From assembly GCA_944388795.1 (NCBI GenBank), contig CALXKD010000005.1, forward strand, positions 4,863-68,862: a stretch of DNA of 64,000 nucleotides. The letters are read 5' to 3'. Every line of letters begins with the position of its first letter. The stretch's first letter is position 1. The translations under genes and the position numbers were made by a program. The DNA comes from an uncultured Clostridia bacterium (GTDB lineage: Bacteria > Bacillota > Clostridia > TANB77 > CAG-508). The notes beneath the pieces are model-generated. The model was not told the origin of the DNA and searched no databases. It saw only the letters and a program-made list of their open reading frames with translations. Positions 4,905 to 50,168 of the stretch are shown piece by piece.

Positions 4905-4929
4905 ACAAACAAAAGAGTAGGTGATAATT

Positions 4930-8238: not shown

Positions 8239-8249
8239 GAGGTGAAAAG

Positions 8250-29848: not shown

Positions 29849-29877
29849 TTGAAAAATCAAGAAAAACAAGTTATAAT
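29849..29877 (+). promoter_or_regulatory. sigma-A-type promoter candidate for the A1-B1 surface-protein operon
   Basis: TTGAAA (29849-29854), 17 nt, TATAAT (29872-29877). Confidence 0.45.
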
Positions 29878-29957
29878 TAATATTAGGTATAATTGTAAAA
29901 TTTAAAATGCTGAAATTGTGATTAAAAGCAAATTTAGTTTTCAGGGGAGGTACTGAT

Positions 29958-32900
29958 ATGAAAAGTAAAATTTTTAAAATTAGTGTAGTTATTTTATTAA
30001 TTATGACACTAACAATGACAAATTTTATATTTTTAGGTTCAAGTCTTATATCTTATGCGGCAGATAATGTAGCAACCAACCATAAAAATATAGAATTTAG
30101 TGCATATTTTAAAGATAGCAATGGAAATAAAACAACAACATTAGAAAGAACAATGGATATGCAAGATATTTCTTTATATCTATCTATTAATGTGAATAAA
30201 GAAGGATTTTTCATGGGAGAGGTAGAATTATCTAATTCTAACTTTGATCTTGTGAGTTCACAAAGTGAATATGTAAGTGAAATTGCAGAAAATAAAATAT
30301 ATTTAAATCAAATTAATGCAGGAACTTCACTAGAGATAGAAGTAAAAGTAAAACCTATTGATGCAGACACAATGGATTTAAGTATGTTGAATTGTGAAAG
30401 TGTATTAACTTTAACAGGTATTTATAGAGATAGTACAGAAAAAGATATAGAAATAAATGCAACAAGAAATGTAAGTATGCGATTAATAGAAATGAATACA
30501 AATGATGGTGTTGAAAATACATTAGAAGTTATAACAAATAAGGTTTTAAAAATATCAGGAGAAAACAAAAGAATCATTCAAATAGCATTAAATCTTGGAT
30601 TAAAGGATAATAGTTACCCAATAAAAGAAATTTATGCTAGAGTAAATGTTCCAGAAATAGATGGAAAACTACCAGAAATAAGAAGAGATATAAATTTAAA
30701 CACAATGTCAGCATCTGAATATAAATATGAAAATGGTTATGTTGAAATTACATTAAAAAATAATGCGACAGAAAATAATGAAATATTATGGAAGAAACAA
30801 GGAACAGAAAATGTTATATTAACATACATATATGATGCAGATATTGATTTAGAAAATACAGAGATTATTTCAGAAGAAACGGTAACATTACATAATAATA
30901 AACAATTAACTTCAAATACAGGAAATATAACATTATCTAATGAAGAAATCGATTCTACAATAGAAGTAAGTGCTAATAATGCAGAGGAAAGTATCTATAA
31001 AGGTAAATTGTATGCTGGAATTGATAGACAATATACTAGTAAAACTGTATTAGATATCAATCTAGCAAATATTGAAGAATACGTATCTATCAGAGAAGAA
31101 GCTAGTAGATATATATTAGCTGATGGAGAAGCAGATAGTAATATATTCTATAATAGAACAACAATTAATAAAGAAAACTTCTATAAGATTTTTGGTGAAG
31201 AAGGAACTATTGAAATTTATAATGAAAACAATGACCTATTGGCTAGAATAAATAATAGTACAGAAACAGATGAAAATGGAAACTTTGTAATCGACTATAC
31301 AGGAAGAGAGCCAAAAGGAATCGAGATAAGAACTTCTAAACCAGTAGCAGAAGGAAGTTTAGAATTTAACCATACAAAAACAATAAAAGCTTCAGATATC
31401 AATGTTATAAAAAGTGCAAATAGTATTGCAACAAAAATTGTATATGGATATAACAACTATAATGAACAAAATATAGCACAAAAAGAAGCGTTATATACAC
31501 AAGGAATAGAAGCTGAGTTAGAAACAAAAATGATGTTAAATGAAACAACAACAGAAGCAAAATTAGAAATAAATAGAAATTCATTATCTACTGTTGTTGC
31601 AAATGATATAGAGATGAAATTCATCTTAAAAACAGATGAAGAATCTAGAGATTTATATAGAAATCCAACATTCACAATAGAATTACCAGAACAAGTGGAA
31701 AATATACAAATCAATCGTATAGATTTATTATATGAAGATGAGTTAAAAATTGCAAATTACTCAGTAGATGGAAGATATATAACAATTCAAATGGAAGGGG
31801 AGCAAACAGCATATAAAGCTCAATCTGTGGAAGGTGCTAACATTGTTATTAATGCAACAATTCATGTAAACAGAACTTCTATAGCAAAACCAGAGGAAAT
31901 TCATGTAACATATACAAATGAAAAAGCAAATGCCTATGCAAATAATGAAGAAATAGGAAGAATTTCTAAAGAGATTGAAGTGGTTGCTCCTAAAGATGTA
32001 ACAGCTATAAATAGTATTGAAGCACTAAATGTAGAAACAGTAGGAGAAAATGAAACAAGTAATGTAAGTCTACAAAGAGGAGCAGAAAGCAGACAAGTAG
32101 AAGTTAAGTTTGAAATTATCAATAACAATGAGGAAAATGTTGAAAATGTTAGTGTTTTAGGAACATTTCCAACTAGAACAGATGAAAATAATATCGATAT
32201 CAGAGTTATAAATGGTATACAAATAAATAATGGTACAGTATATTATACTGAAAATGAAAATGCATCTACAGATTTAGAAAACACAGAAAATGGTTGGACA
32301 CAAAATATATCAAACCCAGAAACAGTAAAGAAATATCTAATTGTTATGGATAAAATTGATTCAAGAACAGCAGTGGATGGATCATATACGATAGAGATAC
32401 CAGAGAATCTAGAATATAACCAAACTGCAAAAGAGGGATATGAGGTTAACTATACAAAAGGACAAGCAAGAAGTGAAAATACAGTAAAAGCAACAACAAT
32501 TGCAATGGAAACTGGTGTAGGTCCTAAATTAGAAAGTAATTTAACAGCAACAGTATCTGGTCAAGAAGTAACAGATACACAAACAGTAAAAAATGGTGAA
32601 GTAATTAAATACAGAATACAAGTATCTAATGTGGGTTCAGAAAATGTAACAAATGTAAAAGTAACTGGAAAAGTACCAGAGGGAACCATGTTAGTACAAC
32701 CAATTGATAATTATGAATATACAGGAGCATCATATTATAAAGCAGTTGATACAGATACTTTTGAAACAACAATTGACAGTTTGGCTGTTGGAGAAGTGAA
32801 GTATGTAGAATATGAAGTTATGGTAGCTTCTAATACAGCAGAGAATACTTCAATTGCAAATATAGCTGAAATTAATTATTCTGACGTTGTTCAAGAAACA

Positions 32901-34889
32901 AATGAAGTAAAGCTTCTATCAGAGTCTGGAAATTTAAGAACAATGGTTAAGAGAGTAACAGATAGAAAAGTAGATTTATATGAAGCTGGAATGGTAGAAT
33001 ATTTTGCTATTATAAAAAATATTTCATCTGAAACTTTGAACGATGTTAAGGTTAAAACAAATAAATCAGAAAACTTAAATGTAACAAGATTGACACTAAT
33101 TTCAGGAATGAGTGAAAATGAAATTAGCGATGACGAAATATATGAAATAGCAGCAGGTGAAAATACAGAGCTTAGAGAGGAAACAAATAGTTCAATAAAT
33201 GAAGATACACAATCAGAAACGATAGAATATAGTGACGAAATCAGTATTGGTTCATTAGCACCAGGAGAAGTAAAAGTATTAAGCTATAACATGACGATTG
33301 ATAAAATGCCAGATAATGAAGTGGATACAATTCATTTCTCAGTAGCAGCATCAGATGGACAAAAAGAATATGCATCAAATGCTTGGGAGGATACAGTTAA
33401 TAGTTTTGATATAGATATGACAATGGAGGCCAATACAGAAAGCAAATATGTAAAATCAGGAGATAGCATTCATTATACAATTAGAGTAAAAAATAATAGT
33501 ACTTCTCAAACTTCAGGTTTAGTAATAAGAGATGAAATACCTTCTCAATTAACGATTAATCGAGTAACAAAAGATGGAGAAGAAATAGAAGTAACTTCTT
33601 CAAACAATGTAGAGATACAAACGGAAATACCAGCCAATGGAGAAAGTACAATTGTTATAGAAACGATTGTTAATTATTCAGAAGGCAGAACAGAGGCAGA
33701 AACTATTACCAATAAGGCGACAGCTAGTATATATGGAGAAGAGGTAGCAACGACTTCAGAGATAAATCATATTATAGAAGCTGATGTAGCAGAAGGAGAT
33801 AACAATAACACAGGTGATAATAACAACGGAAATGGTAACGGAAATAATAGTGGCAATGTTGCAAATGGAGAGCAAATGATCAGCGGTCTAGCTTGGTATG
33901 ATGAAAACAGAGATGGTAGAAAAGATGATAATGAAAAAACTTTAAATAATGTAACTGTACAATTATTAAATGTACAAACAAATCAATTAGTGAAAGATAC
34001 TTCTGGAAGTACATTAGAAGTAAAAACAAATGAAAATGGAATGTATGTACTTGATCATATTCCTAATGGAGAATATATAGTTATATTCAAATATAACACA
34101 GATCAATATTCATTAACAAAATATAAAGCAGAAGGTATTAGTGATGCACAAAACTCTGATGTAAGACTAAATGAATTATTAATTGGAGATACAAGACAAG
34201 AGGTAGCATCAACAGATATGATTAATATAGATAATGAAAATATTTCAGATATTAATATAGGATTAATCGAATTACAAAACTTTGACTTAAAATTAGATAA
34301 ATATATTAGTAGAATATTGATTCAAAATTCAGCAGGAACAACTGTTAGAGAATATAATAATACAACAACAGCAAAAGTAGAATTAGATGCAAAACAAATG
34401 AAAGGTTCAACAGTTATTATAGAATACAACATTGTTGTAACAAATGTTGGGGAAGTTTCTGGATATGCTAGAAGTCTAGTGGATTACATGCCAAGTGATT
34501 TAGAATTTAGTTCTGAATTAAATAAAGATTGGTATGAGCAAGGAAATGCTTTATATACAACAGCACTTGGAAATGAAATCATTAATCCAGGAGAATCAAA
34601 AACAGTCACATTAACATTAACCAAAACAATGGGAGAAGATAATGTGGTATCAAGAAACAATGCAGAAATTTATGAAGATTATAATGATTTAGGAATGGAA
34701 GATGGAAATTCAACGCCAGGAAATAATGTAAGTGGAGAGAACGACATGGGATCAGCAGATGTTATCATAAGTATTAGAACTGGTGGAGTTGTATATATGT
34801 CAATAGGAATTATCATAGCTATTGTTGTAATAGCAGGAGTTGCAGCAGGAATTGTTGTAAAAAGAAAAAATTTGAAGGATAAACAATAG
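29958..34889 (+). CDS. giant surface protein A1 (1643 aa): DUF11-type repeats, SdrD-B-like domain, C-terminal TM anchor
   Basis: Signal peptide ending ...LISYA|AD. DUF11-like repeats (VKNGEVIKYRIQVSNVGSENVTNVKVTGKVPEGT; VKSGDSIHYTIRVKNNSTS). SdrD-B-like ISGLAWYDENRDGRKDDNE...NGEYIV. DSTPGN-type C-domain. TGG, hydrophobic helix, KRKNLKDKQ tail. Confidence 0.85.
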   Translation: MKSKIFKISVVILLIMTLTMTNFIFLGSSLISYAADNVATNHKNIEFSAYFKDSNGNKTTTLERTMDMQDISLYLSINVNKEGFFMGEVELSNSNFDLVSSQSEYVSEIAENKIYLNQINAGTSLEIEVKVKPIDADTMDLSMLNCESVLTLTGIYRDSTEKDIEINATRNVSMRLIEMNTNDGVENTLEVITNKVLKISGENKRIIQIALNLGLKDNSYPIKEIYARVNVPEIDGKLPEIRRDINLNTMSASEYKYENGYVEITLKNNATENNEILWKKQGTENVILTYIYDADIDLENTEIISEETVTLHNNKQLTSNTGNITLSNEEIDSTIEVSANNAEESIYKGKLYAGIDRQYTSKTVLDINLANIEEYVSIREEASRYILADGEADSNIFYNRTTINKENFYKIFGEEGTIEIYNENNDLLARINNSTETDENGNFVIDYTGREPKGIEIRTSKPVAEGSLEFNHTKTIKASDINVIKSANSIATKIVYGYNNYNEQNIAQKEALYTQGIEAELETKMMLNETTTEAKLEINRNSLSTVVANDIEMKFILKTDEESRDLYRNPTFTIELPEQVENIQINRIDLLYEDELKIANYSVDGRYITIQMEGEQTAYKAQSVEGANIVINATIHVNRTSIAKPEEIHVTYTNEKANAYANNEEIGRISKEIEVVAPKDVTAINSIEALNVETVGENETSNVSLQRGAESRQVEVKFEIINNNEENVENVSVLGTFPTRTDENNIDIRVINGIQINNGTVYYTENENASTDLENTENGWTQNISNPETVKKYLIVMDKIDSRTAVDGSYTIEIPENLEYNQTAKEGYEVNYTKGQARSENTVKATTIAMETGVGPKLESNLTATVSGQEVTDTQTVKNGEVIKYRIQVSNVGSENVTNVKVTGKVPEGTMLVQPIDNYEYTGASYYKAVDTDTFETTIDSLAVGEVKYVEYEVMVASNTAENTSIANIAEINYSDVVQETNEVKLLSESGNLRTMVKRVTDRKVDLYEAGMVEYFAIIKNISSETLNDVKVKTNKSENLNVTRLTLISGMSENEISDDEIYEIAAGENTELREETNSSINEDTQSETIEYSDEISIGSLAPGEVKVLSYNMTIDKMPDNEVDTIHFSVAASDGQKEYASNAWEDTVNSFDIDMTMEANTESKYVKSGDSIHYTIRVKNNSTSQTSGLVIRDEIPSQLTINRVTKDGEEIEVTSSNNVEIQTEIPANGESTIVIETIVNYSEGRTEAETITNKATASIYGEEVATTSEINHIIEADVAEGDNNNTGDNNNGNGNGNNSGNVANGEQMISGLAWYDENRDGRKDDNEKTLNNVTVQLLNVQTNQLVKDTSGSTLEVKTNENGMYVLDHIPNGEYIVIFKYNTDQYSLTKYKAEGISDAQNSDVRLNELLIGDTRQEVASTDMINIDNENISDINIGLIELQNFDLKLDKYISRILIQNSAGTTVREYNNTTTAKVELDAKQMKGSTVIIEYNIVVTNVGEVSGYARSLVDYMPSDLEFSSELNKDWYEQGNALYTTALGNEIINPGESKTVTLTLTKTMGEDNVVSRNNAEIYEDYNDLGMEDGNSTPGNNVSGENDMGSADVIISIRTGGVVYMSIGIIIAIVVIAGVAAGIVVKRKNLKDKQ

Positions 34890-34912
34890 AGAAAGGAAAG
34901 GAGGGAAAATAG

Positions 34913-37900
34913 ATGAGTAAAATAAAGAAATTACTAATTGGTATAATTGTTACAATGATAGCAATCATAGGATTTACTAGTATATCTCAAGCTGCTTATA
35001 CTGTGGGACAAAATGTTACAATAACCTATAGTAACTATTTGAATGATCCAAACCTATTTTGTGTTGAGCATCATCAAGCATTGCGTGGAACGCTAACCTA
35101 TAAAGTGATATCACAAGTGGATATAAGAGGAAATACTTCAACAGATCATACTGGTAAAAGTATCGAAAGTTGGTATAACGCAAAATTAGCACATATTTTG
35201 TCAGCTGATAATGGAGCAAATAAACAGTCTGGACCAGTGCAAAATGCTATATGGAATTATATGTATACTTGGATAAAAAATGTAGGACAATATCATGCAG
35301 GATTATATGATGGATTTGCAAATACAGTAAAAGGAAATTCTTCATACTTAGATTCTCAATCATCAGATTATGCAAATGAAGTAGCAAATCTTGGTATAAC
35401 AGACAATACGAATAAAAATAATATCAGTGTAAGAGCAGATGGAGATCATATAAAAGTAGGACCATTTAATTGGTATTTCTCAGGAACTTTGAGTGAAATA
35501 AGAGTAAATGACCAAAATGGAAATGCAGTAAGTGGATTAAGCTTTAGTACATATAATGGAACTACAGAAACTGCTATTGGTATTGGAGATATAAAATCAG
35601 GAAAAGACTTCTATATATCTATACCAATCAGTAGTGGAATTAGCAGAATTACAACTATTACTGCAAAGGGAAGTGTAGCAGTAAAAGGGGTAACTATATG
35701 GTTCTTGGAATCACAAAGTGGATACAATTTCCAAAACTTAATATCTAGACAACCTTATGAAACACCTTATGAATATGAAACACCATTTGATTATAATATA
35801 GATTTACTAGGAAACTTAAAAGTAATAAAAGTAAATAAAGATAATCATGAAGTGAAATTACAAGGTGTTGGATTTAAAATTCAAAACAAAGAAACAGGTA
35901 AATATGTACATGAGGATGCAAATGGAACAATTACATATGTAGATGAAAGTCAAGCAACAGAATTTGTTACAGATCAAAATGGTGAGATTTTAATAGAAAA
36001 CTTAATTGTGGGTACATATGTAGCTTATGAAACCAAAAACCCTAATTATGGATATGAATTTATATCAGAAGGGGTAGAGCATACTGTTGTTGTTGATAAA
36101 ACAGAAGAATTTGTTATAGAGAATAAGCAAATCTATGTAAAACTTTCAGGATATGTATGGTTAGATAAGCAATATGCCAAAGAATCTCAAAGAAATGACC
36201 TATATAGGGACAATGATTATGATTCAGAAGATCAATTAATGGAAGGTGTTATTGTAAGATTAATTGATAGAGAAACAGGTGAAGTTGTAAGAGATGATAA
36301 TGGTAATGAGTTTAGAGCAGAAACAAAAGAGATTCAATTAGATGATGGAATTTTAAGATATTATCAATTTGTAGATGTTAGAATAGAAAATCTAGAAAAC
36401 TATTATATGCAATTTGAATATGATGGATTAACATATACAAATGTAGTTCCACATATAGATGTAGACAATGGTTCTAAGGCAGCAGAAAATGCCGAAACCA
36501 GAAGTGAATTTAATAAAGATTTTAGCACAATAGAAGGAAATTCTGAAACAACAGGTGTTACATTAGATGAAAATGGAAATACGGTACACAACTTATCTTA
36601 TAACAAAGATACAGAAGCACATACAGCAACATTAATCAATGAAGGTTTACCAGTTGGGCAATATCCAATAACGGCTAATACAGATGAAACAGGATATATC
36701 ATAAGAGACCATTTTGAATATGGAATGGAAGAAATACCATATATTAACTTGGGATTATATGAAAGAGAACAACCAGACTTAGCATTGATTAAAGATATGA
36801 AAAATGTAAGACTTGCTATTAATGGATATCAACATATTTATGAATATGATCAAAGATTCCAAAATCAAGGAGAATATGGAGACGGATTTAATGTTGGTGT
36901 TAAATTTGGTAGTGAGTATGCAGAACAAACATATACAAGAGCAATTTATAAAGCAGATTATGAATATGTAAATGAGAATGATGCAAGTAAAGAATTAAAA
37001 GTATATGTAACATATAGAATTGCAGTAAGAAATGAAGCAACCAGCTTAACTTCACAAGTAAATTCATTAGTAGATTATTTTGATAGTAGATATACTGTTG
37101 TGGCAGCAGGAACAGGCATTAATCAAGAAGGTATTATTACTGGTAATATAGACTATACACAAGAGGGCTACAATGATGAATACTCAAAAGCAATCATTTA
37201 CACAAATACAAAGATAGATGCACAAACACAAAGCGAATTCTATGTACAATTTGAACTAAGTAGAGAAGCAGTTATTAATATCTTAAATGATGGAGAAAAC
37301 TTAGACAATGTTGTAGAAATTAATTCATATTCAACATTTGATGAAAATGGAAATGCTTATGCAGGTGTAGATGTGGATTCTAATCCTGGAAATGCAATAC
37401 CAGGTGATAGAGCAACTTATGAGGATGATACAGATTCAAGTCCATCATTGAAGTTAGAAGTAGCAGATGCCAGAGAGATGGCTGGTAAAGTATTCTTAGA
37501 TTCTACATCAGGTGAATTATTAACAGGACAAATCAGACAAGGTAGTGGTGCTTATGAAGATGGAGAAACAGGAATACCAGGTGTCGCTATAACACTTACA
37601 GAAAATACAGGAAGTGGAAAAGTATATACAGCTACAACAGACGATAATGGTGATTTCTATATTTCAGACTTTATACCAGGAGACTATACTTTAACATATA
37701 CTTGGGGAGATACAACTTATACAGTACAAAACTATAAAGGAACTGTATATGATAAAGATAGATATGATGCAAATATGGCTAATAAAGAATGGTATAAAAC
37801 AGATGTGGCTACAAGATGGACAGATGCAGTAGATGATTATCAAACAAGATTAGATATAGATAATGAATTAAAAGAAATTACAAATTCTACACAGACAACA

Positions 37901-38857
37901 ATTGATAAAATGAATTCAACAACTCCAACAATGGGAATTGGTGTAGAATATGATACAACATATACAGCATCAGCAGGGGACAGATATGTATATAGAATTG
38001 AAAACATTGACTTTGGTATTGTAGAAAGAGCAAGACAAGATTTAGCATTAAGTAAAAGAGTAAGTTCAATGAAGGTTACTTTAGCAAATGGTACAACATT
38101 GGTAAACTTCCAAGTAAATGAGGATGGTAGCCTAGAGGGACAAACTTCAAGTGTAACATATATTCCACCATCAGATAGTTCATCACCAGAAAATGGATTA
38201 GTTAGATTGGAAATGGATAATGAGTTAATTCAAGGTTCTAGACTAGAAGTAACTTATGAAATACGAGTAGACAATAATAGTGAATTAGATTACTTATCTG
38301 AAAACTATTATAAATATGGAATCATAGAAGGAGATGTCGTAACAATCACACCATCAGCAATTGTAGATTACTTAGACAGTGATTGGAGCTTTGATGCAAC
38401 AAATAATCCAGATTGGGAAGTAATACAAAGTGATGATAGTAGAATTGATTTAGCAGAGGTTGTATATAATGATGAAAATTCAACAATAAATGAGAAAACT
38501 ATATTATATACAGAAGCATTAGCAGCTTATGATTTAGAGCCTACACAAAATGCAACAATTACGCTAAATGTTTCAAAATTATTATCAGCATCAGAAGATA
38601 TTGAATTAGACAATGAAACAGAAATTGTAAAGGTTAATAAACCAGGAGGATCTGATTTAGTATCAACACCAGGAAATTATATCCCAGGTACAGGACCGGA
38701 AGTAGAAACAGATGATGGTATGGCAGAAACAGTTATTATAACACCAAATACTGGTGATAACTTGAATTATATAATACCAATAGCAGTTATTATAACAGCA
38801 TGTATTGTATTAGGAGTAGGTGTTATCTTTATTAAGAAAAAGGTATTAAATAAATAA
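34913..38857 (+). CDS. giant surface adhesin B1 (1314 aa): thioester (TQXA-type) domain, CnaB/SpaA-type and SdrD-B-like domains, C-terminal TM anchor
   Basis: Signal peptide ...SISQA|AY. FCVEHH (Cys50) and VQNAIW (Gln110) thioester-domain motifs. CnaB fold with E-box-like YVAYETKNPNYGY. Two SdrD-B-like modules. TPNTGD, TM helix, KKKVLNK tail. GGAAAGGAGGG RBS 23 nt after A1. Confidence 0.85.
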   Translation: MSKIKKLLIGIIVTMIAIIGFTSISQAAYTVGQNVTITYSNYLNDPNLFCVEHHQALRGTLTYKVISQVDIRGNTSTDHTGKSIESWYNAKLAHILSADNGANKQSGPVQNAIWNYMYTWIKNVGQYHAGLYDGFANTVKGNSSYLDSQSSDYANEVANLGITDNTNKNNISVRADGDHIKVGPFNWYFSGTLSEIRVNDQNGNAVSGLSFSTYNGTTETAIGIGDIKSGKDFYISIPISSGISRITTITAKGSVAVKGVTIWFLESQSGYNFQNLISRQPYETPYEYETPFDYNIDLLGNLKVIKVNKDNHEVKLQGVGFKIQNKETGKYVHEDANGTITYVDESQATEFVTDQNGEILIENLIVGTYVAYETKNPNYGYEFISEGVEHTVVVDKTEEFVIENKQIYVKLSGYVWLDKQYAKESQRNDLYRDNDYDSEDQLMEGVIVRLIDRETGEVVRDDNGNEFRAETKEIQLDDGILRYYQFVDVRIENLENYYMQFEYDGLTYTNVVPHIDVDNGSKAAENAETRSEFNKDFSTIEGNSETTGVTLDENGNTVHNLSYNKDTEAHTATLINEGLPVGQYPITANTDETGYIIRDHFEYGMEEIPYINLGLYEREQPDLALIKDMKNVRLAINGYQHIYEYDQRFQNQGEYGDGFNVGVKFGSEYAEQTYTRAIYKADYEYVNENDASKELKVYVTYRIAVRNEATSLTSQVNSLVDYFDSRYTVVAAGTGINQEGIITGNIDYTQEGYNDEYSKAIIYTNTKIDAQTQSEFYVQFELSREAVINILNDGENLDNVVEINSYSTFDENGNAYAGVDVDSNPGNAIPGDRATYEDDTDSSPSLKLEVADAREMAGKVFLDSTSGELLTGQIRQGSGAYEDGETGIPGVAITLTENTGSGKVYTATTDDNGDFYISDFIPGDYTLTYTWGDTTYTVQNYKGTVYDKDRYDANMANKEWYKTDVATRWTDAVDDYQTRLDIDNELKEITNSTQTTIDKMNSTTPTMGIGVEYDTTYTASAGDRYVYRIENIDFGIVERARQDLALSKRVSSMKVTLANGTTLVNFQVNEDGSLEGQTSSVTYIPPSDSSSPENGLVRLEMDNELIQGSRLEVTYEIRVDNNSELDYLSENYYKYGIIEGDVVTITPSAIVDYLDSDWSFDATNNPDWEVIQSDDSRIDLAEVVYNDENSTINEKTILYTEALAAYDLEPTQNATITLNVSKLLSASEDIELDNETEIVKVNKPGGSDLVSTPGNYIPGTGPEVETDDGMAETVIITPNTGDNLNYIIPIAVIITACIVLGVGVIFIKKKVLNK

Positions 38858-38871
38858 TGACTATAATTAAG

Positions 38872-38908
38872 ATATGAGATTGATGAAAATCAATCTCATA
38901 TTTTTTTG
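38872..38908 (+). terminator. rho-independent terminator after B1
   Basis: 12-bp perfect stem atatgagattga (38872-38883) / tcaatctcatat (38890-38901), then TTTTTTT. Confidence 0.65.
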
Positions 38909-39179
38909 TGCCAATTATAAGTTTACTTTAACTAAAAGTGAGAAAATATTACGCAAATAATAGAAAGAGAGGATTTTTGTAGAAAAAATAAAATTTGTAA
39001 TAAAATTGTAAACAAAATTTAAAAAAATAAAGACGAATATTGACAAAAAGATGATCCGTAAAGAGATTTATTGTTTTTTTTGTAACAAAAGATAATTGGA
39101 AATAATTCCATATTGATTTTTATTTTCTCAGAAGTTAATATAAAGTAGAATATTATCTAAAGATATGTGAGGGGTATTT

Positions 39180-42100: not shown

Positions 42101-44588
42101 AGAAACAGAGGATGAGTCAGCACAAACAAATGGAAGTATCAATATACAAGCAGATGGACTAGATGGAACAACAATCAATACAATAACAAATCCTATAAAA
42201 CAGGCTGAAATAAAAGCGATTATGCAAAATCCTTTCTACGAAGAAGAACAGTTATATATTGGAAGAAGTATACATATGAACTTAGAAATAGAAAATATAT
42301 CTGGAAATAAATTACAAAATGTAAAAGGAACAATACAATTACCAGATGGTGTTCATGTAAATGATGCTTCAGATTTGATATGGGGGACAACTATTGTAGA
42401 GGGAGAGAGTTTAAATCTTACAGAAGATAAAGTAACGAATCGTACATATAATCAAGAAAATAATACACTAACATTTGAGATTCCTAGTATGGAAGCTGGA
42501 GAAGTTACAACACTAGAGTTATATGTTCAAATTGATAGTTTTGAAGGAATAGAAAAGGACTATACATTTATGTATCAAATGGAAGGACAAAATGTATATG
42601 TGTCAAATATGGCTACATTAAAAATTTTAAATACACAAAGAAATATAGTTGCAGAACAAACTGCTAATATAGATGATAATGTAGGATTAAAATCCGATCA
42701 ACTATTTGAAATTACAACAAGAATTGAAAACAATGATTCAGAGGATTTACATTTTCAATTTTCTGATGCTCTTCCAGAGGGATTTACAGCACAAGGAGGA
42801 ATTGTTAGATATCAAGGACAGGAAACAGAAATACCAATTCTTAGTGAATTTGAAAGTACACAAGATTTTATAATATTCGAAAATATTCTATCAGGCGAAA
42901 TGACTATACCAGCAGGTGAAAGTGTAGAAATTGTATTAACAATATTGGCTGAAACAGAATATATAACAGAAGATACAATTACGAATACAATGGATATTGT
43001 CTATGGAAAACTAAATGAAGACAGTCAGGTTTATCAATATGAATGGACTGGTACAATGCAAGCAAGTAAAGAATATACAATTGCTTCATCAGATGAAAAT
43101 GAAAATGAAAATTGGGTAGAAGTCATACAAACAGGAAATCCAGAAAATAATACAGTATTAGAAAATGGACAAGACATAACTTATACATTTGAAATAAAAA
43201 ATACAAGAGATTATGAAATTGTGACAACAATATATGACTATATTCCAAAAGGAATTACAGTAGAATCTGTAACATTTAATGGAGAACAGCTATCAGCAGG
43301 AGATGTCTACATCGAGGGACATAGAATGGCTGCAAATTCAACCTCAACACTAGAGATAAAAGCATATGCAGATATTGCGCAATTAACCAATACAGATTTA
43401 GTGAATAATTTAACTGTTTCAACTGTTGTAGGAGATGTAATTTCAAATGATATTACTTATAAAGTCGTTTCAGAAGAAACGCCAACAGATCCAGAAAATC
43501 CAAATCCAGATAATCCAGAAGATCCAAATAACCCAGAAGATCCAAATAATCCAAACAATCCAAACAATCCAGGTCAAAATCAATACACAATTAGTGGTAC
43601 AGCATGGATAGATAGCAATCGTGATGGAAAAAGAGATGCTTCAGAAGCTGTATTATCAGGAGTAGGAGTCAGGGTAGTAGATGCTGATCAGGGAACATAT
43701 GTAGATAATGCTAATACAACGACTTCATCAAATGGACAATATCAAATAACAGTAGGAAATGGTAACTATATATTAGTATTTGCATATGACACCGGAAGAT
43801 ATAATCTTACAGAATATAGAAAAGAAGGCGTAGAGGAAAGTCAAAACTCAGATGTTATCAGCAGAAATGTAACAATTGATGGAACTAACAGTACACTTGG
43901 AGCAACAGATGTTATTAGTGTAAATTCAGGAAATATAACTAATATAGATATTGGATTAATCGAAGCTTCAACATTTGATTTAGAATTAGACAAATATGTA
44001 AGCGAAGTTATTGTACAAACTAACAGAAGTACAACACAATATGGATACAATGATCAAAATCTAGTAAAAGTAGAGATACCAGCAAGAGAATTAAACAATG
44101 CAACAGTCATTATACGATATACAATCAAAATTACAAATGTAGGAGAAGTTGCAGGATATGTACAAAACATTGTAGATTATATACCATCTGACTTAAGCTT
44201 TAGTTCAGAACTAAATTCAGATTGGTATCAAGTAAATGCAAATTTACAAAATAATAGCTTGTCAAATACAGCTATAGCACCAGGTCAAATGCAAACAGTA
44301 GACTTAGTTTTAGTAAAAACAATGAATAATGATAATACAGGAACAGTGATTAATATAGCAGAAATTGGAGAGGCATCTAATACCTTAGATTTGAGTGATA
44401 CAGACTCAACACCAGGAAATAACAATGCTTCTGAGGATGATTACGGAAGAGCAGAAGTTATCATCAGTGTAGGAACAGGTGGCGTAATTATATTTGTATC
44501 AATCATATTCATGATATTGATATTAACAGGATTAAGTGTATTTATCATTAATAAAAAAGTATTAAAAAAAGATGAGATAGATTTTTAA
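39180..44588 (+). CDS. giant surface protein A2 (1802 aa), paralogue of A1
   Basis: Signal peptide. Architecture colinear with A1, including ISGTAWIDSNRDGKRDASE (SdrD-B-like) and LELDKYVSEVIVQ...TNVGEVAGYVQNIVDYIPSDLSFSSELNSDWY. Pro/Asn linker. VGTGG, TM helix, basic tail. Confidence 0.85.
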   Translation: MKKKVLKLVTVVALIAVLMSFNMVPLGYNVVVALASELDAQSNNTNIANVKFDAYFKTDSGNVHAKQSNISDGENYLYININVLEKGSLDNAKIKINDSNFKIKGNNISNTYIKSVNVEANEIELNSIIYNNNVEIEIPIEFNKVNNVNGTYFSKETNVSLEGTYKEEEDEEALQGNIVTKLEWTDNAEAKLSQSIEKCIDLGENGVLIQQQITSTIDNGNLPRESEEFHVVVPKIGDNLPNNIQVLSNGKKLNDGNIQYDAEAGQLKITRESTTNEEGNTSWDSGIDEYKVIYTYDKAVKENVSTIHLKTEMNSKLFTKENNQKIDEQDVTLEFKGNVVSSKKSTTQEVYKGYLYANSANETIFRENNVIEISKAEVIDYIKASTNNSHFVGSEENAYDANSIVLYKETLINKNRFIELFGENGYLDIKDANGNVIATVNNQSETSEDGNVHITYAQPLTGIYIETSKPIKEGQFTIHHVKCIQGNTGYAKNQLKTFTRLNTNEVVETNLGLDQTEANINLLDTVTEARLEVNNTNLSTLQKNENVQFTITLKTASEKYDLFKNPVIELTLPSSISNIDVKSVNKVYADEFNIEYARLRDGANGEKVIQIALSGQQSDYSKEINELAIVINADIEFSVLTASQKSNIAMSYTNENGNEASYQTSVDINIESKPGMMIYNNLSGFNTAGDSIYTIDDNIPMGVLDIEGGAMTARASTAIINNYDIEIKDVVIIGRIPKKGVYDGTLDTTLVGGIRTNVSGIEILYSQNIAATQDDGSWSTDYTNAASYMIRLDSVAAGQAIALQYEIGIPENIGYGQSIYAQTNTTYTYLGNVNTQTSTIGAKSENVITNNILALASTTQTEQNGLGIAISAVSGGSELEEGTPVYEGQMITYTMQITNHTGSDLHNVNIKATQTNGHLYDLIEEEAFDPNAQEETEGIYHKYAELDTNEKTFDTIDTLANGESVILQYNSIVLETEDESAQTNGSINIQADGLDGTTINTITNPIKQAEIKAIMQNPFYEEEQLYIGRSIHMNLEIENISGNKLQNVKGTIQLPDGVHVNDASDLIWGTTIVEGESLNLTEDKVTNRTYNQENNTLTFEIPSMEAGEVTTLELYVQIDSFEGIEKDYTFMYQMEGQNVYVSNMATLKILNTQRNIVAEQTANIDDNVGLKSDQLFEITTRIENNDSEDLHFQFSDALPEGFTAQGGIVRYQGQETEIPILSEFESTQDFIIFENILSGEMTIPAGESVEIVLTILAETEYITEDTITNTMDIVYGKLNEDSQVYQYEWTGTMQASKEYTIASSDENENENWVEVIQTGNPENNTVLENGQDITYTFEIKNTRDYEIVTTIYDYIPKGITVESVTFNGEQLSAGDVYIEGHRMAANSTSTLEIKAYADIAQLTNTDLVNNLTVSTVVGDVISNDITYKVVSEETPTDPENPNPDNPEDPNNPEDPNNPNNPNNPGQNQYTISGTAWIDSNRDGKRDASEAVLSGVGVRVVDADQGTYVDNANTTTSSNGQYQITVGNGNYILVFAYDTGRYNLTEYRKEGVEESQNSDVISRNVTIDGTNSTLGATDVISVNSGNITNIDIGLIEASTFDLELDKYVSEVIVQTNRSTTQYGYNDQNLVKVEIPARELNNATVIIRYTIKITNVGEVAGYVQNIVDYIPSDLSFSSELNSDWYQVNANLQNNSLSNTAIAPGQMQTVDLVLVKTMNNDNTGTVINIAEIGEASNTLDLSDTDSTPGNNNASEDDYGRAEVIISVGTGGVIIFVSIIFMILILTGLSVFIINKKVLKKDEIDF
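43482..43574 (+). repeat. short in-frame tandem repeats encoding a Pro/Asn/Asp/Glu linker in A2
   Basis: ccagaagatccaaataa[c/t] twice (43515-43550) followed by ccaaacaat twice (43551-43568). Encodes PTDPENPNPDNPEDPNNPEDPNNPNNPNNPG. Confidence 0.7.
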
Positions 44589-44609
44589 GGAAAGGAGGGG
44601 AGAACATAC

Positions 44610-47600
44610 ATGAAAATAAAAATGAAAACAGAAATCAGTTTTATTATTTCTATTATACTGATTGTTCTACTAGGAGTATTTATATATAAAGTTTCAGGAG
44701 TAGAAGGAGATGACTTAGCTTCATCAGCACAAAATAGTAGTTCACTTTTCTGGAATGATATAAAAATAGGAGATATTGTAAATCAAGAGAATATAGAAAA
44801 TTCTTCACGAAGCCGAAACTGGATATGTTTTAGCCATGAGACACTTAATGGTTTTGGTACGAATAATGAAGTAAAATGTATATTAGATATTAATATGTCT
44901 GAATTAGGGAAATACACAGTACAAATCAAAGGAAAAACAACAGTAAATGATAAGGCATATGGTAATGATAAAAATATAAAAAAATTAGTATATTTACTTT
45001 ATGCAGCTACAGTAGATTCTAGTCCTGGACTAGTAGGTGCAGAAGGTGCAAGTGCTTCAAAGAATGCATTATATTATTTCTTTAACAGTACTAACCTAGA
45101 ATATTTAATAGGTGATTTTAGTAAAAGGAGAACAAGCGAATATACAAGTGAATCAAAATCTGCAGGAGCAACTGTTTTAAAATATGCACAAACATATGCA
45201 GATTCTGAAACAACAGGTTCAAATGCAGAAATAACTAGCAGTAGTGATTCTGGAGCGGAGGTAAAAGTATCTCAGGCATCTAATGGAACTAGTTATAGTT
45301 ATATAGGACCATTTACTATGAAAACAGCAGGAACGATTAGTAGTGTTAGTATTAAAGATGGAAATAGTACACCAGCTGTTGCAGGATATGCTTTGTCAGT
45401 AGGAGGAGATGTAAAAGCTACTTCAGGAATTCCTAGAAATGGTAATAAGTTTTATATTGCAACAACTGCAGTTCTAACGAATTTAAATGTTAATGTAACA
45501 ATAAATACATCAGGAACTGCTGGGGGAGGAACTGTAACAAATCCTGTAACAAAAGCTAAATCAACAGGTTATGTTAGAGGAAGAATTATTTTTATGGGAG
45601 GTACTACAGGACAAGCAACTGCTATATTCAGAGGAGATCCAATTTCAACATCACCAACAAAAGATAGTGTAACATTTACAGCAAAAAACAACTTGGGAAA
45701 AATGGTAATACAAAAAGTAGGAGCATATGCAGGAAATGAAGCTTATGAGAATGTTAGAGATTTTGGATTTAAAGTTTACTATTTAGATGGTTCAACAAAA
45801 AAATATTTAAGAATCAACAATAGTGACACCATTCGTAATCAAGCAACTGTATCAATGGGAGGAAATAGTTCATATGCAGCAAATGCTAATACAGCAACAA
45901 CGATATTTACCTCAAGCAATGGAACGGTTACAATTGATAATATCTCTATTGAATATCAATATTACATAGAAGAATCTAATACAGATGAAACCAATTATAA
46001 TGCAGAAATTATTAGTGCAACTAGTCAAGCAGGAACAGGACAAGTAACAGATCTAAGAATAGATGGAAATACAGCAGGTCCAATTACAGTAACGCTTAAA
46101 GGTGCTAACAATACAGCAACAAAAATTATGTTAAAGGACTATAGAAAAGTAGGATCTTTAACAATAGAAAAAGTCGATCAAGATGACTATAATGTAAAAT
46201 TAGGAAATGTAGAATTTAAACTAAGAAATAAAGACACAGGAAATTATGTAATTGCTGAGAAAACAGGAGATGGACAATATAATATTCCAGATCAATTAAA
46301 AGGTTATACGCCAAATGAAGCAGATGGAACATCTTTTATAACACATCCAACAAACGGAACAATAACCATCAATGGCTTAGATGTTGGTAATTATGAAATT
46401 ATCGAAACAAACAATCCAAATTATGGATATACGGTTTTACCAGAAAATGTTTCAACAACAGTTGTAAATGGAAGTACAACTACAGCAACTGTACAAAATG
46501 AAAAACAAACAGGAAACTTATTTATAGAAAAGAAAGATGCAGATAATGAAGCTGCCAAAATAGGTGGTATCAGCTTTAGAATAAGAAAGAGTGTATCTGC
46601 TGAAGATCAAGCAGCTCTTGCAGATTTTGTTGAAGGAAAAGGTGACGTAAATAATAATGGATATCTAGAGGAAGAGGATTTAAAACTTGTATTAAGACAT
46701 GTTACAGAAAAATTAGAACTTACCTCTGAGCAACGAAATGCAGCAGATGTTAATGGAGATGGACAAGTTAATGTAGCAGATTTACGTTTATTAACGAGAA
46801 AAATACAAAGCGGTGGATATGTTGTTGGAATGCAAAGTGATAGCTCAGGAAACCTAACATCAATTACAACAGCAACAGGCACTGTACATTTTGATAGTAT
46901 GACAACTACAAATAATCCAGATGAAGCAACTACATTTGTAACAGATGCAGAAGGATTAATAAAAATATATAATATATTAATTGGTAATTACGTAGTAGAA
47001 GAGATTTCTGTAGGAGATAATTTTGGTTATGATATAGATCCAAACTTTATTTCTTGGGAAGTAACCAATAGTGATGGAACAAAAACGACTGTAAATCTAT
47101 CAACATCAGCAACAATAGAGGTAACAAGACAAAAATCTACAGATACCAACAGTACAGCAGCGCAAAATGGAACAGGAAGCGCAAGTGAAATGACGAATAA
47201 AAACAGAAGAAAATATATCAAAGTAAGTGGATATGCTTGGGAAGATAAGACAGATGGAAAAGGAAGTCAAAAAGATTATCAATGGACTGATGGAACAGAA
47301 GATAGAAGATTACAATATATCACAGTTACTTTGAAGAATGCAGATGGAATAGTATTAGATACAAGAGTAACAAATGCAAATGGTGAATATAACTTTGGTA
47401 ACTATGATGAGGATTCTAGTGCTATTAAACTAGAAATAGATGAATTACCAGGAGCTTATATAGAATTTGAGTATAATGGTATGAGTTATCAATCAATACC
47501 AATCAATTCTGAATTCGGAATGATATCTGCTACGAATACAGGTGGATTAAATACAGCAAATATTATTAGTGGTACAAAAAATAGTGCAACAGATGAAGCA

Positions 47601-50093
47601 TTAAGAGATGCATTTAATAATAATTATGCAACGATTCGTAAAGGAATTTCTCAAAATACACAAGATCAAAAAGTATATGATATACAATATACATATAGTG
47701 ATTATAAAAGTACAGTGGTTTATGGGGATTCTGTAAATTATGGATATGAAGGTCAAAGATATCCAATATCAGGTGTATATGACCAATATGAGATAACAGC
47801 AGTAACAAATGCAAATGAGAATAATGCACTATGTACACAATATACAACACAAGATATTAGACAAAATAGTGTATTAGAAATAGCTGGTATCAACTTAGGT
47901 GTAGAAGAAAGAGAAATGCCAGATCTAAACCTATCAAAACAAGACCTTGAAAAAATAGAAGTACAGCTTAATGATTATACACATACATATAAATATGGAC
48001 AGGTATCAGCAGACCCTGATGGATTTGCAGGAGGAGATGTATCTAATATAGCAGTTAGATTTGCTAGTAAATATTTTGAAAGCTCATATACAAGAGAAAT
48101 CTACACAGCAGATGTTGTATATAACAAGCAACCAGGAAATGAAGGTAAACTAAAAATGTATATGACCTATAAGATAGAAATAACAAATGAAGCAACAAGT
48201 CTAAATAGTACAGTAAAAACAATAGCAAATTATTATGATGCTAGATATGAGAATATGGTTATTACAGATGAAAATGGAAATACAATTGATTATCAAATTG
48301 ATGATAGCTATAATGTTAATGGCTTGAAGAAAATGGAGATATATGTAAATCAACAATTGGCAGCACAAACTTTAAAAACAATTACGATTCGTTATCAATT
48401 AAATAATGATGCAATAAATGCATTATTAAATGGAGAAACAACATTGGATTCTATTAGTGAAATAACAGGATATTCAACATATATGGATAATACATTTACA
48501 ACTCCTTATGCAGGAATAGATGTGGACTCTGCACCAGATACTGTAATACCAGGAGATAGATCAACTTATGAGGATGATACAAACTGGGCACCATCATTAA
48601 TTATTGTACTTAAAGAAGGAAGAATTATACAAGGTACAGTTTGGGAGGATGCACCAATAGAAGACTTACTAGAGGGAACAGGATATGATAAACAAAGAAT
48701 TGGTGATGGACAATATCAATCAAGTGAAAATATTGTTAATAATGTTAAAGTTGATTTAATGTTAATTGATGAATCTGGAAATCTAACATTGGCAAAATTG
48801 TATAAGAGAGATGAAACTGTAGTAGATGCAACAACAACAACTAGCGGAAAAGGTGAATATAGTTTTGTAGGTGTAGAACCAGGAAATTATGTCATAAGAT
48901 ATACTTATGGAGATAATAGTGTCATTTGTGATGCAGAAGGTAATGAAATAAAAAATGTAGATGCTGATATTTATAAATCAACAATCTATAGAGGTGGAAA
49001 TAAAGACGCAGTAAATAGCATGACAGACTACTGGTATAGAGGAGAAACTAGTCATGAGGGTGCTATTAGACTATCAGATGCAAAGGATAATGAGGAATTT
49101 GTAAATGATAGAATCACAGAAGAAGAAGTAAATTATGAAACCGTAACAGGTAGAATGCAATTAACAGAAATCAGTGCAGATACTAGAAAATTTGATATAA
49201 AATTGGATTATGATATCAATTTAGACAATATTAGTGAATATGGTGTAGACTTGAAATTTGTCTTTGATAATATTGACTTTGGTATTATAGAAAGACCAAG
49301 ACAATCATTACAGATAGATAAAGAGATAGGCTATTTACAATTAACATTAGCTAATGGTGTCAACACAATTAATGGTGATCCAAGAAGTCAAAACTTATCA
49401 GGTGTTGTTGCATTACCAGATGGTAATATACATATAGAGGTTGACAATGAAATTATACAAGGTGCAACATTAAAAGTAACTTATGAAATTACTGTAGATA
49501 ATAGTAATTGTGAGATAGACTATAATGATGAGGATTACTATATTTATGGAACTGTTCCAGCAAACAAAGAGGAAGTATTCAAAATTGCAACAGTTGTAGA
49601 TATGTTTGACTATTTACCAGAAGATGTTGTATTAGAATCAACTGACGGTAATAACTGGGAAAGAATAACAATATCAGAGGATATGAAGGGAACACTTCTT
49701 CAAAATGAGGTATATGATGTTGTAAGAAACTTACAAAATGTTATACACTTAAAAAATCCAGTATTTGAAAATATGCAACCAGGCTCAGAGGCCGTAGATA
49801 CAAGTATGGTGGTAACAAAACAATTATCTGTTTCATCAGATGATTTGGTATATGAAAATGACGTAGAGGTTGTAAAATTAAAAGGAAGAAAAACAATTGA
49901 TTCAATTCCAGGAAACTATGATCCTACTACAAATACGCCAGATGAATATGATGATGATAGAGTAGAATTGACTATTACAGGACCAACTGGTGAAAACAGA
50001 CAATATATCATATATGGAGCAATAGGAATTGGTATGTTAATCATTGTTGGAATAGGTATTGTTATCATAAAAAGAAAAATCTTAAAAAAATAA
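44610..50093 (+). CDS. giant surface adhesin B2 (1827 aa), paralogue of B1 with degenerate thioester motif and an embedded dockerin-like module
   Basis: TM/signal anchor. ICFSHE (Cys73) but SKNALYY in place of TQxAIW. Two CnaB/SpaA-type domains (NYEIIETNNPNYGY). Regions colinear with B1 (NEATSLNSTVKTIANYYD; GIDVDSAPDTVIPGDRSTYEDDT). GPTGE, TM helix, KRKILKK tail. AAAGGAGGGG RBS 21 nt after A2. Confidence 0.85.
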   Translation: MKIKMKTEISFIISIILIVLLGVFIYKVSGVEGDDLASSAQNSSSLFWNDIKIGDIVNQENIENSSRSRNWICFSHETLNGFGTNNEVKCILDINMSELGKYTVQIKGKTTVNDKAYGNDKNIKKLVYLLYAATVDSSPGLVGAEGASASKNALYYFFNSTNLEYLIGDFSKRRTSEYTSESKSAGATVLKYAQTYADSETTGSNAEITSSSDSGAEVKVSQASNGTSYSYIGPFTMKTAGTISSVSIKDGNSTPAVAGYALSVGGDVKATSGIPRNGNKFYIATTAVLTNLNVNVTINTSGTAGGGTVTNPVTKAKSTGYVRGRIIFMGGTTGQATAIFRGDPISTSPTKDSVTFTAKNNLGKMVIQKVGAYAGNEAYENVRDFGFKVYYLDGSTKKYLRINNSDTIRNQATVSMGGNSSYAANANTATTIFTSSNGTVTIDNISIEYQYYIEESNTDETNYNAEIISATSQAGTGQVTDLRIDGNTAGPITVTLKGANNTATKIMLKDYRKVGSLTIEKVDQDDYNVKLGNVEFKLRNKDTGNYVIAEKTGDGQYNIPDQLKGYTPNEADGTSFITHPTNGTITINGLDVGNYEIIETNNPNYGYTVLPENVSTTVVNGSTTTATVQNEKQTGNLFIEKKDADNEAAKIGGISFRIRKSVSAEDQAALADFVEGKGDVNNNGYLEEEDLKLVLRHVTEKLELTSEQRNAADVNGDGQVNVADLRLLTRKIQSGGYVVGMQSDSSGNLTSITTATGTVHFDSMTTTNNPDEATTFVTDAEGLIKIYNILIGNYVVEEISVGDNFGYDIDPNFISWEVTNSDGTKTTVNLSTSATIEVTRQKSTDTNSTAAQNGTGSASEMTNKNRRKYIKVSGYAWEDKTDGKGSQKDYQWTDGTEDRRLQYITVTLKNADGIVLDTRVTNANGEYNFGNYDEDSSAIKLEIDELPGAYIEFEYNGMSYQSIPINSEFGMISATNTGGLNTANIISGTKNSATDEALRDAFNNNYATIRKGISQNTQDQKVYDIQYTYSDYKSTVVYGDSVNYGYEGQRYPISGVYDQYEITAVTNANENNALCTQYTTQDIRQNSVLEIAGINLGVEEREMPDLNLSKQDLEKIEVQLNDYTHTYKYGQVSADPDGFAGGDVSNIAVRFASKYFESSYTREIYTADVVYNKQPGNEGKLKMYMTYKIEITNEATSLNSTVKTIANYYDARYENMVITDENGNTIDYQIDDSYNVNGLKKMEIYVNQQLAAQTLKTITIRYQLNNDAINALLNGETTLDSISEITGYSTYMDNTFTTPYAGIDVDSAPDTVIPGDRSTYEDDTNWAPSLIIVLKEGRIIQGTVWEDAPIEDLLEGTGYDKQRIGDGQYQSSENIVNNVKVDLMLIDESGNLTLAKLYKRDETVVDATTTTSGKGEYSFVGVEPGNYVIRYTYGDNSVICDAEGNEIKNVDADIYKSTIYRGGNKDAVNSMTDYWYRGETSHEGAIRLSDAKDNEEFVNDRITEEEVNYETVTGRMQLTEISADTRKFDIKLDYDINLDNISEYGVDLKFVFDNIDFGIIERPRQSLQIDKEIGYLQLTLANGVNTINGDPRSQNLSGVVALPDGNIHIEVDNEIIQGATLKVTYEITVDNSNCEIDYNDEDYYIYGTVPANKEEVFKIATVVDMFDYLPEDVVLESTDGNNWERITISEDMKGTLLQNEVYDVVRNLQNVIHLKNPVFENMQPGSEAVDTSMVVTKQLSVSSDDLVYENDVEVVKLKGRKTIDSIPGNYDPTTNTPDEYDDDRVELTITGPTGENRQYIIYGAIGIGMLIIVGIGIVIIKRKILKK
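46641..46812 (+). other. dockerin type I-like module inside B2
   Basis: Duplicated Ca-loop plus helix: GDVNNNGYLEEEDLKLVLRHV ... ADVNGDGQVNVADLRLLTRKI. It is inserted within the second CnaB-type domain. Confidence 0.6.
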
Positions 50094-50134
50094 AACAATA
50101 AACTTGAAAAAATAAAATCATAAAAAAGTTTAAA

Positions 50135-50168
50135 AAAATCATTTCTAAATAGGAATGATTTTTTTTAT
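50135..50168 (+). terminator. probable terminator after B2
   Basis: 9-bp stem aaaatcatt (50135-50143) / aatgatttt (50154-50162), then a T run. Confidence 0.5.

Follow-up and report, generated by a model that had tools for sequence, protein, structure and literature searches.

In Streptococcus pyogenes the thioester adhesin Cpa forms the tip of the pilus, in a system (with FctA and a class B-type pilus sortase) where the gene of the thioester protein lies beside a stalk-type gene and the partners carry different, non-LPxTG sorting motifs. Shaft pilins are about 300-500 amino acids long, and the textbook sorting signal of a sortase substrate consists of a short motif, a hydrophobic segment and a basic tail. 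Outside pili, the Class II TIE proteins BaTIE, EfmTIE86 and SaTIE combine a thioester-type fold, made of a beta-barrel and a helical lobe with an inserted beta-sandwich, a long beta-hairpin and Cys/Gln motifs, with a CnaB/SpaA-type stalk and a C-terminal wall-sorting signal (PMC6194298), and fibrillar adhesins with DUF11/CLIPPER stalks have a signal peptide, an array of immunoglobulin (Ig)-like, DUF11 and SdrD_B domains and a C-terminal sorting domain (PMC9210967, PMC12617251). Here we describe a locus which resembles these systems in part, found in a stretch of 64,000 nucleotides (hereafter the window) from an uncultured Clostridia bacterium (assembly GCA_944388795.1, contig CALXKD010000005.1, positions 4,863 to 68,862). 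It holds two consecutive pairs of genes for giant proteins, A1-B1 and A2-B2, and we consider it probable that this cassette encodes fibrillar adhesins which are expressed together and anchored to the wall, A as a rod and B as a covalent adhesin of the thioester type, and which have been duplicated and have diversified.

The two pairs comprise four open reading frames (ORFs) on the + strand, amounting to 6,586 codons or 30.9% of the window, and the ORF calls and translations reproduce the sizes and the share of about 31% given in a preliminary description made from the letters alone. The genes and the signals around them are:

29849-29877, + strand: promoter-like site 5' of A1, TTGAAA-17-TATAAT (11 of 12 matches, the best in the region)
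29958-34889, + strand: A1, rod-like surface protein, 1643 amino acids (ORF call, Pfam/NCBIfam, AlphaFold2, Foldseek)
34913-38857, + strand: B1, thioester-type adhesin, 1314 amino acids (ORF call, Pfam, AlphaFold2, Foldseek, profile search)
38872-38901, no strand assigned: hairpin followed by a T-run 3' of B1, terminator-like (hairpin scan)
39180-44588, + strand: A2, paralogue of A1, 1802 amino acids (ORF call, Pfam, alignment)
44610-50093, + strand: B2, paralogue of B1, 1827 amino acids (ORF call, Pfam, alignment)
about 50134-50168, + strand: A/T-rich hairpin and T-run 3' of B2, terminator-like (found by eye, outside the coverage of the scan)

The gap from A to B is 23 nt in the first pair and 21 nt in the second, with the ribosome sites GGAGGG and AGGAGGGG, in agreement with the tight spacing and strong GGAGG-type sites reported before. 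A and B would be co-produced from one tightly spaced operon and, in many relatives, as a single polyprotein. The earlier proposal of a promoter and a terminator for each pair stood for the promoter-like site of A1 and the hairpins after B1 and B2, but a promoter of A2 was not evident: among the sites listed in a promoter scan of the region, none upstream of A2 was as good as that of A1. Promoter-like matches in the region were no commoner than in shuffled sequence, so that the site of A1 is itself weak evidence.

The N-terminal region of B1 carries the assignment of B as an adhesin. The model of residues 1-300 has a predicted local distance difference test score (pLDDT) of 89.3, and its only significant fold matches in the PDB were 6fwy and 6fwv (Foldseek, E = 9e-7 to 7e-5, probability 1.0), the Class II thioester domains of Enterococcus faecium TIE86 and Bacillus anthracis BaTIE. 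The domain and its motifs lie as follows:

34994-35803, + strand: Class II thioester-like domain of B1, residues 28-297 (AlphaFold2 pLDDT 89.3, Foldseek, motifs)
35057-35068, + strand: FC50VE of B1, fitting [YFL]C-Phi-zeta
35237-35254, + strand: helper motif VQ110NAIW of B1, fitting TQxxPhiW, at the start of helix 108-123
35729-35743, + strand: FQ274NLI of B1, fitting Phi-Q-zeta-Phi-Phi
44823-45629, + strand: core of the thioester-like domain of B2 (alignments), with IC73FS and GQ335ATAIF kept and the helper motif degenerate (SKNALY)

Judged by the motif definitions of Class II thioester domains (PMC6194298), C50 is present in 22 of 22 aligned sequences and Q274 is nearly invariant among them (conservation of 90% or more), and every B homologue with an N-terminus in its called ORF retains the Cys and Gln motifs, even at identities as low as 30%. 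C50 is the sole Cys of B1 outside the membrane anchor, that is, the only one predicted to be extracellular, and in the model Q274 is flanked by the two long terminal strands, some 25 residues short of the domain end. Q110 of the helper motif was considered as the bond-forming Gln and rejected, because the bond Gln of the described domains is on a late strand (PMC6194298), which points to Q274. Judging from the model and the motifs, B may form a thioester between Cys and Gln: it would be a sequence-divergent Class II thioester domain held on a stalk of SpaA, SdrD_B and DUF11-like domains, and its Cys-Gln bond would serve for covalent attachment to a target. This is consistent with the tip-adhesin-like character first ascribed to B.

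Sequence searches placed the family apart from annotated proteins. An exhaustive search of 1.84 billion representative proteins returned only 182 relatives of the thioester-like domain (clusters at 50% identity), and among the matches listed the full-length relatives carry the domain at or near the N-terminus of proteins mostly 1,200-1,900 amino acids long. A word-index search with the N-terminus of B1 gave just 26 close fragments and no annotated relatives, and cluster look-ups gave no informative names. Searched against solved structures by sequence, B1 alone gave at most weak SpaA-type matches, or none; with a profile built on the N-terminus of B the matches were pilin SpaA domains, and no thioester domain was among them. 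B thus differs from the TIE proteins in having a small family whose head domain escapes Pfam, in the two SdrD_B plus DUF11-like modules added to its stalk, in an anchor of the form PxTGxN and not LPxTG, and in its gene, which in all loci with enough upstream sequence either follows an A gene or is fused to one. In two metagenome-assembled genomes (MAGs) the B1 orthologue matches only from residue 78-89 onward (L005, 16312-20232; L006, 15285-19043), with about 280-320 nt of non-coding DNA after A; the Cys-bearing start of the domain may be missing or very divergent there.

Behind the head, B1 continues as a stalk:

35810-36127, + strand: SpaA (CnaB-type, pilin-like) stalk domain of B1, residues 300-405 (Pfam SpaA, 1.9e-12)
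37544-37807, + strand: SdrD_B-like domain of B1, residues 878-965 (28.9 bits, just below the Pfam cut-off of 29.7 bits)

In the profile search this domain matches the pilin structures 9lty, 3phs and 4oq1. The CnaB domains originally named are in Pfam terms SpaA, a prealbumin-like family of CnaB-type fold, so that the fold held and the family name changed. Past SpaA the stalk consists of two modules, each of an SdrD_B and a DUF11-like domain, where the conserved peptides picked out in the preliminary description are found. B2 is built from a thioester-like N-terminal domain, SpaA domains, an internal dockerin, SdrD_B and a sorting signal. A B1 orthologue longer by about 110 amino acids (L007, 14977-19251) has its first SpaA domain duplicated in tandem, which indicates that stalk length varies between strains.

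A is stalk-like, as had been proposed. In A1 a signal peptide is followed by an Ig-like array, DUF11 repeats, an Asn/Gly linker, SdrD_B, a DUF11-like domain and the sorting signal, and the DUF11 and SdrD_B domains named earlier were recovered by Pfam and NCBIfam:

30045-32567, + strand: Ig-like array of A1, residues 30-870, about eight beta-sandwich domains (AlphaFold2 pLDDT 88.9, Foldseek)
32562-33728, + strand: DUF11 (CLIPPER) repeats of A1, residues about 869-1257 (Pfam DUF11, 1.1e-12; TIGR01451, 3e-17)
33888-34217, + strand: SdrD_B domain of A1, residues 1311-1420 (Pfam, 4.7e-11)

In A2 the SdrD_B domain is at residues 1471-1575 (Pfam). The first ~840 residues of A1 matched no Pfam or NCBIfam family, and A1 alone, searched by sequence against solved structures, gave weak SpaA-type matches at most, or none. 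The model of residues 30-870, built on 28 homologues, is entirely beta (pLDDT 88.9), with about eight Ig-like sandwiches, and its best Foldseek matches were the Ig-like domains of PrgB (8beg), integrin alpha legs and the MG arrays of alpha-2-macroglobulin, with low global TM-scores, as expected of a flexible rod; no specialised head domain emerged from this fold search. PrgB, the aggregation substance of Enterococcus faecalis, is the best structural match of the array through its Ig-like stalk, but the resemblance is of a generic multi-Ig kind (TM about 0.2), and A lacks both the PrgB adhesin domain and a conjugation context. Compared with the DUF11/CLIPPER-stalk adhesins, A has no recognisable adhesive head, its first ~840 residues being Ig-like and without Pfam families. 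Fibrillar adhesins use DUF11 as a stalk domain with isopeptide bonds, a role predicted for SdrD_B as well (PMC12617251). A would therefore be, on its domain content, a rod of roughly 15 domains, made of Ig-like sandwiches, DUF11/CLIPPER and SdrD_B. Both A and B show the signal peptide, the repeated stalk domains and the surface anchor by which fibrillar adhesins are recognised, and both would use Sec signal peptides for export and tripartite C-terminal signals for being held at the predicted surface position.

The strongest indication that A and B belong together comes from related loci. The comparison set comprised 87 loci, ten from reference genomes (uncultured Clostridia or Clostridium MAGs from chicken and human gut) and 77 from a metagenome scan. 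In each of the 78 loci whose sequence reaches far enough upstream of B, A directly precedes it, so that the co-occurrence in other genomes on which the first proposal depended was found without exception among the informative loci. Furthermore, in 32 loci the second cassette is a single in-frame A-B ORF of about 2,860-3,016 amino acids, with at least nine distinct junction sequences. At these junctions the S[IV]xTG motif and hydrophobic helix of A are followed by a basic loop of 9-15 residues (e.g. NVKYGIKRITK) and a second hydrophobic segment, which ends in an Ala-x-Ala-type site and leads into the B part with no stop between. The basic tail of A thus also serves the B signal peptide as its n-region. 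A weak Shine-Dalgarno-like AAGGA was seen at only 2 of 15 junctions, Met is absent from some of them, and sorting signals of the B type are never internal. Fusions of this kind are strong "Rosetta-stone" evidence, drawn from sequence, that A and B act together in equal amounts, and together with the adjacency in the 78 informative loci they uphold the pairing as a functional unit; alone they do not show physical contact between A and B.

The topology of the fused proteins would place A outside, the first helix across the membrane, the loop inside, the second helix back across and B outside. Signal peptidase and sortase would then release both proteins, or alternatively the hairpin would remain as their shared anchor; in either form the hairpin, formed by the helices of the A sorting signal and the B signal peptide, would ensure equal amounts at the same export site. 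We tentatively hypothesise, as a possibility that we hold at well under even chances, that A-B is an obligate surface unit made by one export event, in which the cuts of sortase and signal peptidase at the hairpin release two adhesins 1:1 at the same site, which could afterwards remain together as a rod and a covalent "warhead". If true, Gram-positive surface proteins would here be made in a way not described before, and a literature search returned no paper combining "internal signal peptide" with sortase and adhesin terms.

The split second cassettes of one prevalent species were considered as unfused forms and rejected, being fused ORFs with a frameshift about 230 amino acids into B. This frameshift is present in 15 loci (L025, L028, L031, L033, L035, L037-L039, L042, L043, L053, L073, L074, L076 and L078; for example at 19931-19968 of L038), which are 93-100% identical over the region tested and come from many independent gut samples, and it splits the fused second cassette into overlapping ORFs of about 1,600 and 1,400 amino acids. 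It may reflect a pseudogene that has become fixed, an arrangement for re-initiation or a sequencing error that recurs.

The C-termini bear on how the proteins would be held. All four end in an xxxTG motif, 20-25 hydrophobic residues and a Lys/Arg tail, and these are the only such ends in the window:

34770-34889, + strand: sorting signal of A1, SIRTGG, a 24-residue hydrophobic segment and the tail KRKNLKDKQ (translation)
38741-38857, + strand: sorting signal of B1, TPNTGDN, a hydrophobic segment and the tail KKKVLNK (translation)
44466-44588, + strand: sorting signal of A2, SVGTGG (translation)
49977-50093, + strand: sorting signal of B2, TGPTGEN (translation)

With an N-terminal signal peptide and a tripartite C-terminal signal, A1, B1, A2 and B2 all have the layout of sortase substrates. 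The motif is specific to the type of protein, S-[IV]-[RKSG]-T-G in A and P-[NSA]-T-G-x-N in B. S-I-[RK]-T-G is kept in nearly all A1 orthologues listed, down to 50% identity, with rare changes of S to G, S to N and I to V or L, and nine diverse B proteins, as well as 38 B-type ORFs, show P-x-T-G-x-N without variation. The absence of a locally encoded sortase, reported from the first reading, was borne out, no sortase domain being found by Pfam in any window ORF scanned over the 64 kb. What did not hold was the idea of an assembly independent of sortase, since all four proteins carry classical tripartite signals. The conserved xxxTG motifs within these signals indicate a sortase encoded elsewhere in the genome, which most likely would cleave and attach A and B at Thr-Gly. 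The SrtB substrates of Clostridioides difficile, a low-GC anaerobe whose single class B sortase is encoded away from its substrates, are alike in the Pro-x-Thr-Gly seen in B, the membrane segment and the basic tail (PMC4155245). SrtB recognises (S/P)PXTG and does not cleave NVQTG in vitro (PMC4155245); against that standard, B has [TIV]P[NSA]TG, whereas A has S[IV]xTG, without Pro and resembling the uncleaved NVQTG. Similar low-GC gut assemblies widely carry a family of class B sortases, whose listed members share 67-99% identity.

Several observations weigh against wall-anchored thioester adhesins as the explanation of the cassette. For the head of B, the TM-scores to 6fwy and 6fwv are low, about 0.3, and no thioester-domain family of Pfam was among the matches of the first family member, or among the 25 families listed for all 22, even at E = 10, although HMMER filters drop most matches above an E of about 0.1, so that very weak ones would be invisible; the thioester domain claimed at the outset therefore has the fold match and the motifs behind it, but no Pfam match. 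The helper-motif Gln is moreover replaced by Ala in about half of the orthologues, a motif that is non-essential in the described domains (PMC6194298). For the anchors, LPxTG occurs in none of A1, B1, A2 and B2, whose motifs are all non-canonical, the curated sorting-signal and LPXTG-anchor models of Pfam and NCBIfam found no match, and the class B sortase, common in similar assemblages, is only a candidate for the genome of the window itself. A catalytic-motif search of the ORFs of the 87 loci, those without a window homologue not being Pfam-scanned, found a sortase in L051 only. It is of class B (PF04203; 588-1622, - strand) and lies 1.1 kb from a hybrid B gene (2726-6259) that encodes at its N-terminus a BspA-like repeat segment lacking a signal peptide. 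We rejected this adjacency as linkage, because elsewhere the same sortase adjoins a DUF402 gene and an rRNA operon: in three other samples (L088-L090) a 16S rRNA gene comes after the sortase and the DUF402 gene. The position of B1 at which L051 is joined, about residue 306, is also where four other contigs break, and the join, the single case of a sortase beside B, is probably chimeric or repeat-mediated. A sortase just past the right end of the window, examined by way of LemA/GerQ synteny, was likewise rejected, LemA being about 30% identical and the region not syntenic.

The same facts can be read as membrane anchoring only, without the action of a sortase, the C-terminal helices being stop-transfer anchors and the fused forms a bitopic hairpin with two extracellular arms. 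We judge this rather unlikely. The non-canonical motifs, the silence of the curated models and the lack of a sortase nearby are all in keeping with it, as is the hairpin topology, which is compatible with a stable membrane protein, and the failure of SrtB on NVQTG (PMC4155245) implies that x[VI]xTG motifs may be non-substrates. On the other hand, the A and B homologues have, almost without exception, Thr-Gly immediately ahead of the hydrophobic segment despite identities of 30-50%, which a plain membrane anchor does not explain. The order of motif, roughly 20-25 hydrophobic residues and KRK tail is moreover that of a textbook sortase signal, and class B sortases are common in these assemblages.

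A sortase might instead build the two proteins into one fibre, pilus-like or heterodimeric, with the PxTG of B joined to a lysine of A, or with A polymerising, and the S[IV]xTG of A anchored to the wall. The two type-specific motifs are the pattern of tip and shaft pilins handled by different sortase steps, the thioester adhesin Cpa sits at the tip of the Streptococcus pyogenes pilus, and the tight coupling of A and B and their fusions argue for a 1:1 partnership. However, neither a pilin motif of the YPKN type (YPK) nor LPxTG occurs in A1, A2, B1 or B2, no class C or other sortase was found among the ORFs of the window scanned with Pfam, and A, at 1,640-1,800 amino acids, is far larger than known shaft pilins. 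Where the Cpa pili have an adjacent sortase and a pilin motif, this locus has neither, and the partner of its thioester-type protein is a multidomain rod of 1,600-1,800 amino acids. We regard a sortase-built fibre as improbable, and the two-component fibre of the preliminary description, in so far as it implies polymerisation by sortase, was not sustained.

Another explanation concerns the second copy, whose B protein carries an insert in its stalk:

46638-46805, + strand: type I dockerin within the stalk of B2, residues 677-732 (Pfam Dockerin_1, 8.5e-11)

The insert has the two Ca-binding repeats of a type I dockerin, and could dock to a cohesin, possibly on A2, making the cassette, or at least its second copy, a cellulosome-like cohesin-dockerin scaffold. 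Beyond the Pfam match itself, this is favoured by the retention of the insert in the second-cassette B parts of other species (25 ORFs) and by a second dockerin protein in the window, a separate leucine-rich repeat (LRR) protein of 1475 amino acids (57259-61686) with the dockerin at its end. Against it, a cohesin domain showed up neither in A2 nor in any other window ORF that was scanned, a dockerin is absent from the first cassette, and that of B2 could be an added feature and not the main function. A scaffold is in our view quite improbable as the role of the cassette.

An assembly artefact or a recent repeat, for which nothing speaks except the similar gene order, is extremely improbable as an explanation of the two pairs, the paralogues being 26-37% identical as protein, their DNA sharing short stretches only and the two-cassette layout recurring in dozens of independent assemblies. 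A1 and A2 are colinear, with 37% identity over the last 520 amino acids and 26% over the first 1350, and so are B1 and B2 (31% across 1119 aligned positions); the peptides quoted in the preliminary description are all present in the translations and fall within these colinear alignments. At the DNA level the two pairs have only five short stretches in common, at 68-90% identity. The low protein identity and the shortness of the shared DNA exclude an assembly duplication, a possibility raised from the outset, and on these sequence comparisons the duplication of the A-B pair appears old and real, with copies that have diverged as first suggested. Antigenic diversification of the copies is plausible.

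The cassettes lie at a fixed chromosomal site. The window is low-GC (guanine-cytosine) chromosomal DNA, about 25-32% GC over most of its length and with uniform positive GC skew. On the 5' side of the cassettes are radC, mreBCD, a PBP2-type transpeptidase and minC, followed by two small, divergently oriented ORFs, and on the 3' side a spoIIE-type gene, a WG-repeat protein, acpS, tatD and the LRR protein with its C-terminal dockerin. Wherever the flanks are visible and recognisable, the related loci have their cassettes between minC with the two small ORFs and spoIIE; five loci (L068, L072, L075, L081 and L084), whose flanking ORFs have no match in the window, stand outside this statement. The comparison of presence and copy number across related genomes that had been called for gave one to three cassettes per locus at this fixed site, the type and position of the extra copy differing among lineages. 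The region had been called an island, a word which fits in a descriptive sense only: as acquired DNA it would not be expected to match the GC of its flanks, occupy a fixed position between minC and spoIIE and be without adjoining mobility genes, all of which was found. A tblastn search of a plasmid collection with B1 gave no match, and hence no sign of plasmid or conjugative origin.

The two small ORFs between minC and A1 (134 and 146 amino acids; 28860-29670, - strand) have no family match, and one of them is Asn/Ser-rich with a conserved C-terminal helical segment. Their homologues occupy the same position in nearly all loci showing that region, and a regulatory link to the cassette is possible. 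minC is not followed by minD or minE. Further upstream, 23 kb away and amid housekeeping genes, a TraG/VirD4-type type IV coupling protein is encoded at 5387-6982, preceded by three small ORFs without family match (3942-5412); it may be the remnant of a conjugative element, and no link to the adhesin cassette was seen. A RhuM-family gene at 15725-16742 appears as two overlapping ORFs (247 and 114 amino acids) that match the N- and C-terminal halves of the Pfam model, and is probably frameshifted. The GC minimum of the window, 18%, is at 8001-10000; the ORF there (8250-10196) has N-terminal domains of the SbcC/AAA type.

Both thioester/isopeptide adhesins and DUF11 stalk proteins belong to kinds already described. 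New are a thioester-type family that sequence models fail to reach, a pair of non-canonical sorting motifs, an A-B cassette which is obligate and occupies a fixed site in variable copy number, and polyprotein fusions through a hairpin of sorting signal and signal peptide. Thioester adhesins bind host or partner molecules covalently, which makes them relevant to colonisation biology and to protein-ligation technology, and the present family, invisible to standard sequence models, occurs in prevalent uncultured gut Firmicutes. The list of sequences that sortases might recognise grows by S[IV]xTG and PxTGxN, and the strict pairing and the fusions raise the question of how two wall-anchored giants are exported and positioned together. 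Moreover, that copy number varies at one fixed chromosomal site suggests that strains continue to diversify in surface specificity.

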